Below, piece after piece: positions 6,369 to 6,399 of a stretch of DNA of 24,830 nt. Location: contig JAZSKX010000008.1 of assembly GCA_045535075.1 (NCBI GenBank), positions 1 through 24,830 of the forward strand, in the 5' to 3' direction. The position numbers and the translations under genes were made by a program. Every line of letters begins with the position of its first letter. Position 1 is the stretch's first letter. The notes under the pieces were generated by a model. That model saw only the letters and a list, made by a program, of their open reading frames with translations, was not told the DNA's origin and made no database searches. The stretch is from Candidatus Spyradenecus sp. (GTDB lineage: Bacteria; Verrucomicrobiota; Verrucomicrobiia; Opitutales; UBA953).

Positions 6369-6397
6369 AAGCCTAACGAATTTCCCATTCGGTAAGC
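6369..6397 (-). repeat. Left 29-bp inverted repeat; putative tyrosine-recombinase core site
   Basis: Minus strand reads GCTTACCGAATGGGAAATTCGTTAGGCTT, identical to 8426-8454 on the plus strand. Internal imperfect dyad GCTTACCGAA-TGGGAAA-TTCGTTAGGC. Confidence 0.9.
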
Positions 6398-6399
6398 AA
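6370..6399 (-). promoter_or_regulatory. Putative sigma70 promoter overlapping the left recombination site (TTGCTT-N18-TAGGCT)
   Basis: -35 TTGCTT at 6399-6394 and -10 TAGGCT at 6375-6370, 20 nt upstream of the ATG at 6349. Motif match only. Confidence 0.55.

Follow-up and report, generated by a model that had tools for sequence, protein, structure and literature searches.

The window (the whole 24.8-kb stretch of DNA analysed here) is contig C14 of genome G000 (1.95 Mb, 99% complete), the closest public relatives of which are metagenome-assembled genomes of gut Opitutales (Verrucomicrobia) from ruminants and other animal hosts. It contains two divergent polysaccharide operons and, between them, a 2-kb segment that is bounded by a short inverted repeat and encodes a tyrosine recombinase. 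Our subject is this segment and, in particular, the proposal made in an earlier note on this DNA that each repeat copy is at once a recombination site and a promoter divided between movable and fixed DNA. The left operon runs on the minus strand; its first intact gene encodes a UDP-glucose 6-dehydrogenase-like protein (4865..6112) and is followed by genes for an epimerase (3803-4861) and a glycosyltransferase (2521-3834). The right operon runs on the plus strand and begins with a gene for an fnlA-like UDP-N-acetylglucosamine (UDP-GlcNAc) 4,6-dehydratase/5-epimerase (8468..9487), after which fnlB-like (WbcJ-type reductase) and wecB/fnlC-like genes follow rightward. Within the segment, the recombinase gene (int; 7350..8402, 350 aa) and a gene for a Y1 transposase of the IS200/IS605 family (tnpA; 6616..7086, likely ATG at 7068) both lie on the minus strand. 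Hereafter, the labels L, G, C and X denote loci, genomes, contigs and public sequencing runs, respectively, and distal and proximal are used relative to the recombinase gene.

The inverted repeat, found by a repeat search, is 29 nt long; its arms (6369-6397 and 8426-8454) are 100% complementary and lie 2,028 nt apart. When the 29-mer was searched for across the 1.95-Mb genome with up to three mismatches allowed, only the two arms were matched and the reversed-pattern control gave 0 hits, so that the repeat is far beyond chance. Read outward, the left copy (minus strand, from 6399 to 6370) is TTGCTT-ACCGAATGGGAAATTCGT-TAGGCT and the right copy (plus strand, 8424-8453) is AAGCTT-ACCGAATGGGAAATTCGT-TAGGCT. 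Direct reading of the sequence thus bears out both hexamer pairs of the earlier note, TTGCTT-N18-TAGGCT and AAGCTT-N18-TAGGCT. Its statement that identity between the copies ends at two inner bases is also correct, the divergence falling exactly at 6398-6399 and 8424-8425, where one copy has TT and the other AA.

Together with the two bases at its inner edge, each arm forms a 31-bp core site laid out as a dyad, with a 12-nt inner arm, an asymmetric 7-nt spacer (TGGGAAA) and a 12-nt outer arm. The left, recombinase-distal site (6369..6399, minus strand) consists of the TT edge (6399-6398), the remainder of the inner arm, GCTTACCGAA (6397-6388), the spacer (6387-6381) and the outer arm, TTCGTTAGGCTT (6380-6369); it includes the -35-like hexamer TTGCTT (6399-6394) and the -10-like hexamer TAGGCT (6375-6370). 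The right, recombinase-proximal site (8424..8454, plus strand) has the AA edge (8424-8425), the inner arm (8426-8435), the same spacer (8436-8442) and the same outer arm, TTCGTTAGGCTT (8443-8454), with AAGCTT at the place of the -35 box and the -10-like TAGGCT at 8448-8453. The -35-like hexamer is therefore made up of the tip of the inner arm and two interior bases, and the -10-like hexamer lies within the outer arm. The AA copy forms a near-dyad about the spacer (AAGC-N4-CGAA / TTCG-N4-GCTT), which the TT edge of the other copy breaks. On the movable side of the left site, directly upstream of the TTG, is an A-rich tract, GAAAATCACC (6400..6409, minus strand), that resembles the A-rich stretch found before the -35 box in the tRNA promoters of this genome. 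A 12-7-12 layout is the usual architecture of tyrosine-recombinase core sites, in which strands are exchanged at the spacer borders. The TGGGAAA spacer, situated between the two hexamers, is likely to be the crossover region; the position of the crossover is only inferred, since the joints can be placed anywhere within the 28-29 shared letters.

Related loci and the orientation of the segment

Sites were sought in 13 loci, which form about five sequence groups with recombinase identities of 55-100%. Twelve of these loci carry sites and ten carry both; L007 has none, as its contig ends before the site. Useful loci from a metagenome scan with the recombinase were limited to L043 and L044, L045 having been dropped (41%, partial); L011 and L012 were also dropped as partial matches (40% over 48 residues).

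The two ends of the segment differ consistently at their inner edges. The distal edge is TT followed by GC in 10/10 loci with both sites, and the proximal edge is AA followed by G in 12/12 (the ten pairs, L043 and L052). An alignment of one representative from each of the five groups revealed no conserved block in the interior, C-TTGC being the only sequence conserved upstream of the arms. An A-rich tract precedes C-TTGC in four of the five groups: counted by eye, A occupies 4/5 of positions -10 to -6 in the window and 5/5, 4/5, 4/5 and 2/5 in the other four groups, compared with 0-2 of the same five positions at the proximal edges.

The outer and inner arms also differ from each other. TA..CT is kept in the outer arms of all 22 sites, with the TA at positions 6-7, equivalent to T-12 and A-11 of a -10 box. 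At the mirror positions of the inner arms TA occurs in 6/22, all of them in the window's own group. Since both types of arm should bind the same protein, the retention of TA in the outer arms only serves as an internal control. The 22 sites contain 11 different inner arms and only six different outer arms. In L010 and L044 both flanking genes start 8 nt after TATGCT; in the window the first start codons lie only 20 nt (left) and 14 nt (right) beyond TAGGCT, and transcription must therefore start in the site or inside the segment. The claim that a -35-type hexamer is present on the movable side only, at the distal end, and TAnnCT on both fixed sides is thus upheld across the loci. Taken together, these comparative controls favour a promoter over a pure recombinase site.

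Several lines of sequence evidence indicate that both orientations of the segment are present among near relatives and within samples, in agreement with the inversion proposed earlier. The TTGC end faces an epimerase-type gene in the window and in L008; in L003, L004, L005 and L046 it faces fnlA. The recombinases of L003 and L004 are 97% identical to that of the window, yet the orientation is opposite, and the same holds for the orientations of L006 versus L008 and of G124 versus G142. Public runs (24 listed) were examined as assembled contigs. Run X1 contains contigs in which 6368 is connected to 8454, and 6398 to 8426, with a change of strand at each joint, as in the inverted form. A separate contig spans 6368-8454 in X2 and in X5 (2,092 and 2,095 nt, respectively) and overlaps the flanking contigs by 30 nt. 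With the Logan word length taken to be 31, as we assume, this pattern is the one expected of a graph branch at the 29-nt repeat when both junctions are present, and would mean that the sample held either both orientations or two strains. In contig G142:C19 (7,786 nt; L052 and L077) an identical fnlA flank has been assembled onto each end of the invertible segment, which points to a source sample of mixed orientation; the length of the segment is ~7.7 kb in G142 and 3.2 kb in G124. The site, or the DNA next to it, is also where contigs of G176, G290 and G418 stop, and inversion would explain the many assembly breaks at the locus.

The site pattern is present in 14/19 genomes of the genus (control matches, 0). 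G059 carries a mini-inverton (L075, on G059:C5; 22316-22337 and 22568-22589) with an interior of ~250 nt that is free of a recombinase gene; the spacer is TGCGTAA, one edge is AAATAAACC-TTGCCT and the other AAGC, and TA..CT is found in both outer arms. It is located 20 kb from the main switch of this genome and faces a truncated copy of the epimerase cassette. In G124:C4 a third perfect site (L076; 63152-63173), on a contig other than that of the switch and with a core identical to the switch sites, reads TTGCAC-N18-TATGCT and ends 9 nt before the ATG of a GT2-type glycosyltransferase gene; it may take part in recombination as an additional partner, or may be a fixed promoter derived from a site. 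A decayed core in G142:C25, with two changes in arm and spacer, retains TTGCAC-N18-TATGCT, and a solitary site in G160 reads TTGCCT-N17-TAATCT. In G290 the outer arms contain TAGACT and TACACT, so that TA...T is kept though GGC is not. Mini-invertons with the same arm type and with spacers TGAGAAA and TTGGAAA occur in G247:C42 (L079) and G418:C97 (L081), respectively, with sites 165-207 nt apart. In both, the TTG edge and the outer-arm TA are missing, the inner edges being AA/AT and AG/AA, from which it follows that the recombinase needs neither feature. Two loose minus-strand matches in L082 (three substitutions allowed) were discarded because they did not show the arm pattern.

A promoter candidate spanning the site

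Judging from these sites and their flanks, the segment is probably an invertible toggle for glycan operons in which the promoter spans the crossover site. The recombinase encoded inside the segment would exchange strands in the spacer and thereby invert the 2-kb segment. The outer arm with TAGGCT would stay with each operon as its -10 box, 14-20 nt before the first start codon, and the movable DNA would carry the A-rich tract and CC-TTGC at its distal end and AAGC at the other. The operon facing the TTGC end would then acquire an UP-like tract and TTGCTT-N18-TAGGCT and be transcribed with a leader of ~8-14 nt; the operon facing the other end would acquire AAGCTT-N18-TAGGCT and be silent. For the orientation assembled in the window, this predicts that the dehydrogenase, epimerase and glycosyltransferase genes of the left operon are ON and that the fnlA-like operon is OFF. 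From the sequence we infer promoter activity with starts near 6362-6364 and 8459-8461, the ON/OFF state, catalysis by this particular recombinase and occlusion of the promoter by bound recombinase. The split-promoter interpretation of the earlier note agrees with the anatomy of the site, its conservation and the occurrence of both orientations, and overall it is partly supported by the comparative controls.

The canonical σ70 promoter is approximately TTGACA-N16-18-TAnnnT, and the loose pattern TTGnnn-N18-TAnnnT has nine occurrences in the window and 427 genome-wide. Promoter likeness by itself is not above chance; it is conservation and asymmetry across related loci that lift it. The tRNA genes of this genome provided a native standard: 25/42 have TTG(A/C/G)(C/A) 30-55 nt upstream, often as cTTGACA or cTTGCCA. 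In these 25 promoters an A-rich tract precedes the -35 box, the spacer is 17 nt in 18/25, and the -10 box is degenerate (TAGGGT, TAGAGT, GATGCT), with its last T retained in 19/25. The tRNA promoters are thus dominated by the -35 box, and a TT-to-AA change should therefore kill them. (A genome-wide profile anchored on strong -35 boxes was rejected as a consensus, being swamped by codon periodicity.) Junctions were scored with a two-block matrix built from the 25 tRNA promoters. Distal junctions scored from 6.7 to 14.2 (genome tail 2.9e-3 to 5e-5) and proximal junctions from -12.8 to -4.0 (genome tail 0.10 to 0.46); the left junction of the window, at 6.7, is in the top 0.29% of genome positions, and those of L010 and L044 are in the top 0.005%. 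In 9/10 loci the best outward candidate within -300..+45 is the distal junction, that is, it spans the site. Since a complete promoter inside the invertible DNA, as expected of an inverton, was not found, we class the element as a variant of the invertible-promoter switch.

A number of observations weigh against the split promoter. The window junction matches the Escherichia coli consensus at 6/12 positions (our own count), and a sigma-70 scan of 5900-8900 made no call there; the scan is uninformative, however, as it returned one other site against 2.3 expected from shuffles. On the tRNA scale the window junction is the weakest of the set (6.7 versus a tRNA median of 15.5), about one match as good being expected by chance per 345 positions, and its spacer is 18 nt, as opposed to the 17 nt prevailing among the tRNA promoters. 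The matrix, moreover, is anchored on TTG and hence partly circular, and a profile of the regions upstream of protein-coding genes (619 regions, 180 anchors) gave no clear consensus, a weak T at +28 being all that emerged. Because the loci are related to one another, the counts exaggerate their independence, and effectively independent groups number only about five. In L005, interior sites outscore the junction (10.2 at -241 and 9.6 at -217), and the first open reading frame (ORF) past the left site of the window is a gene fragment. Finally, contigs of the metatranscriptome X19 cover 6367-6466, 6454-6682 and 6750-7105, as well as the 5' half of int, all upstream of the proposed start. Cover of 6367-6466 and onward to tnpA is the type of result that the earlier note had named as refuting its proposal; it is weak here, the contigs being strand-blind and of depth 3-5, with DNA carry-over possible. 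X19 has no cover at 7112-7818.

The weak junction of the window, the interior candidates of L005 and the X19 contigs would all be accounted for by a conventional invertible promoter, in which a whole interior promoter, or read-through from int and tnpA, crosses the distal repeat and TTGC is conserved for some other reason. The X19 contigs span 6367-7105 with so few gaps that tnpA can be linked to the left repeat; if they represent minus-strand RNA, tnpA transcripts read across the left site. In the window int, tnpA and the distal-facing operon are co-directional, and int and tnpA always point toward the distal end; read-through would therefore give the same ON/OFF pattern. We nevertheless regard this explanation as rather unlikely. 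A whole interior promoter is at odds with the lack of a conserved block before C-TTGC across the five groups, and it leaves unexplained both the outer-arm-only TA and the TTG-N17/18-TAnnnT of decayed and solitary sites. Read-through is excluded in L006, L008, L009 and L046, where the cargo gene at the distal end (Fic/DOC) points inward, and is opposed by L010 and L044, which are cargo-free, with ~75 nt between the int stop codon and the site and with flanking genes that follow TATGCT without a Shine-Dalgarno motif. In the window, terminator-like hairpins on the minus strand follow int (7354-7381) and tnpA (6534-6558). Given the inward cargo genes and the cargo-free loci, read-through cannot be the general mechanism, though it may contribute to expression in the lineage of the window.

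It is improbable, in our estimation, that the TT and AA edges serve recombination instead, through unequal recombinase affinity or binding of an accessory protein, and so bias or regulate the direction of inversion. Flanking sequence does bias inversion direction for FimE at fimS. The edges abut the binding arms, and the dyad AAGC...GCTT is complete with AA and broken with TT, so that binding of the inner arm should be unequal at the two sites. The inner arms vary so widely, however, that one would not expect two bases at their tip to be strictly required, and mini-invertons of the same family have other edge combinations (AA/AT and AG/AA). Nor would an effect on recombination alone account for the A-tract, for the precise distance to TAnnCT or for the start codons lying so close by. 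Least probable of all, to a degree that we would hardly entertain it, is the absence of a programmed switch, with the repeats being the ends of a mobile element (int and tnpA) inserted between the operons and the two orientations being separate insertions. The segment does hold integrase-family and transposase genes, and its cargo varies among loci. Against this stand near-identical strains in which the same flanks are joined to either end, the indications of both orientations within samples, the structure of the sites as inverted dyads with an asymmetric spacer, and the conservation of the locus between polysaccharide operons across 55-100% recombinase identity.

The split promoter may be part of a wider arrangement, which we put forward as possible but speculative. 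The 31-bp core would itself be a promoter, with RNA polymerase and recombinase competing for the same DNA, and the family would be modular, a shufflon of promoter halves for surface glycans. Spacer identity (TGGGAAA, TGCGTAA, TGAGAAA, TTGGAAA) would set the pairing of sites, the arms with a -10 box and a short leader would be resident, and a mobile half with the UP element and the -35 box would be dealt among at least two operons. Such dealing is suggested by the third perfect site of G124 and by the second, recombinase-less pair of G059.

The recombinase and the neighbouring genes

The recombinase matches PF00589 at 41.1 bits (cut-off 27.1) over residues 201-331. NCBIfam Xer models match it only far below their cut-offs, and a search of solved structures with its sequence gave none at E<=0.01. 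Tyrosine recombinases have the catalytic pattern R-K-H-R-H/W-Y; by-eye assignment places R211, K238, R297, H320 and Y330 as invariant in 7/7 aligned relatives, down to 39% identity. An Asp, at position 294, is likewise invariant in 7/7 and lies three residues before R297, at the place of the usual first catalytic His. The family is present in 37/401 sampled genomes of the order and is confined to two families (10/33 and 26/34), often with several paralogs per genome. One paralog, 45% identical, is encoded in the same genome (G000:C15:103206-104222, minus strand), with a terminator-like hairpin before the gene and orthologs in five relatives. Paralogs at 45-47% identity (this one and those of the five relatives) have no flanking sites of the type described here, and those at ~40% identity have no clear flanking repeat within ±1.5 kb; a GCGATTTGGGAAATCGC-type pair is present in G103:C108.

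The start codon of int is only 23 nt inside the proximal site, and the int promoter must therefore overlap this site as well. Just upstream of the int ATG (8403-8447, minus strand) the window contains TTCCCA, located in the spacer, followed by N18 and TAGATT. By eye, L005 and the L006 group share this arrangement with the window, the second hexamer being TAGATT or TAAATT. We treat this as a lead only; int may have a promoter here that overlaps the site, and its expression could then be autoregulated.

The transposase encoded by tnpA matches PF01797 (77.4 bits) and NF033573 (62.4 bits, cut-off 55). The gene is cargo of the segment in the window's lineage only, other loci having different cargo. 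It is bracketed by a 37-nt inverted repeat (6508..6544 and 7171..7207), identified by the repeat search, the first arm of which overlaps the terminator-like hairpin at 6534-6558. The arms are 92% complementary and hairpin-forming, reminiscent of the tyrosine transposases associated with repetitive extragenic palindromes.

In the operon to the left of the segment the first ORF is not a whole gene: the ORF that begins 20 nt after TAGGCT (6164..6349, minus strand) is a 62-aa piece from the 5' end of a gene for an NAD-dependent epimerase. At 95% DNA identity it corresponds to the 5' end of another copy on contig C16 (G000:C16:250123-250247), the upstream region of which is different. Even shorter epimerase fragments (MKVLVTGGA...) are retained in L004 and L005. 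Because such fragments are shared, the site, the leader and the first codons together have the appearance of a conserved docking cassette, with gene clusters having been exchanged downstream of it.

On the right, the product of the first gene matches PF02719 at 344 bits. TIGR04130 is its best match by far (578.3 bits), under the equivalog cut-off of 730, hence the wording fnlA-like. An ORF of the PD-(D/E)XK nuclease family (10832-11218, plus strand; PF13366, 123 bits) lies between the fnlB-like and fnlC-like genes. Further along, the polysaccharide locus of the window includes a HipA_C+MarR_2 gene and an AlbA_2/HATPase_c_4/Fic-like_C gene (14202-15518 and 17060-18646, respectively). Genes of the HipA-like/MarR and Fic/DOC-HTH types are found within the invertible segments of relatives (L006:6227-7528, L006:7579-8580, L008:7278-8291 and L046:6065-7231), and toxin-antitoxin-like or defence-like genes seem to collect in these glycan loci.

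Comparison with known invertible promoters

Programs and annotators that look for invertons usually seek a whole promoter between short repeats, and a promoter that exists only at the junction would be missed or misread. If the split promoter is real, the OFF state would be very tight, since no -35 box is left behind, and promoter strength, recombinase binding and strand exchange would all be tied to the same 31 bp, amounting to a two-way genetic toggle of compact, natural design. The locus also points to phase-variable surface glycans in gut Opitutales, which are uncultured and common in ruminants. A full-text literature search, with the supplements and motif tables of Jiang 2019 lying outside it, yielded no account of an inversion site that separates a -35 box from its -10 box; PMC12324116 and PMC7672463 have no bearing on the question.

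The invertible promoters of Bacteroides capsular polysaccharides (Krinos 2001, Jiang 2019) reportedly consist of a whole promoter inside an element of ~170-230 bp, with the recombinase encoded outside. The present locus resembles them in that a gut symbiont has phase-variable glycan loci and inversion takes place between short inverted repeats; it differs in being a two-way toggle, each Bacteroides locus being said to have one ON/OFF switch. A complete promoter inside the segment, serving one outward direction, is also the rule in the Hin H-segment of Salmonella and fimS of E. coli, Hin being a serine recombinase. Like Hin, the recombinase considered here is encoded within the invertible segment, and as at fimS it is a tyrosine recombinase that would invert promoter DNA. 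In the sap system of Campylobacter fetus one invertible whole promoter lies between two opposed surface-antigen genes, and recombination occurs between homologous gene ends. Alternative expression of two divergent sides is common to sap and the present locus; unlike sap, the latter has a dedicated core site and a split promoter candidate. The joining of a mobile -35 box to a -10 box by recombination is familiar from the IS911 circle junction (Pjunc) and from the hybrid promoters of insertion sequences (IS). IS hybrid and junction promoters arise by transposition or circle formation, whereas a reversible, two-state inversion at a tyrosine-recombinase core site is proposed here. An IS1 hybrid promoter is mentioned in PMC9820224.

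The closest described case is the cps1 inverton of Akkermansia, an ON/OFF element beside one capsule locus with the repeat motif CGGATT..AATCCG, as given in the excerpted text of PMC13343947. As far as that excerpt goes, phylum, gut habitat and association with a capsule locus are shared, and the repeats are similar in style, CGAAT-GGGAA-ATTCG being the corresponding sequence in the window. The excerpt names no recombinase and maps no promoter for cps1; here the 2-kb segment encodes its own recombinase, lies between two divergent operons rather than beside one locus, and has a promoter candidate that spans the site. The present locus combines three traits: an interior tyrosine recombinase, toggling in both directions between glycan operons, and a promoter candidate that the core site divides in two.

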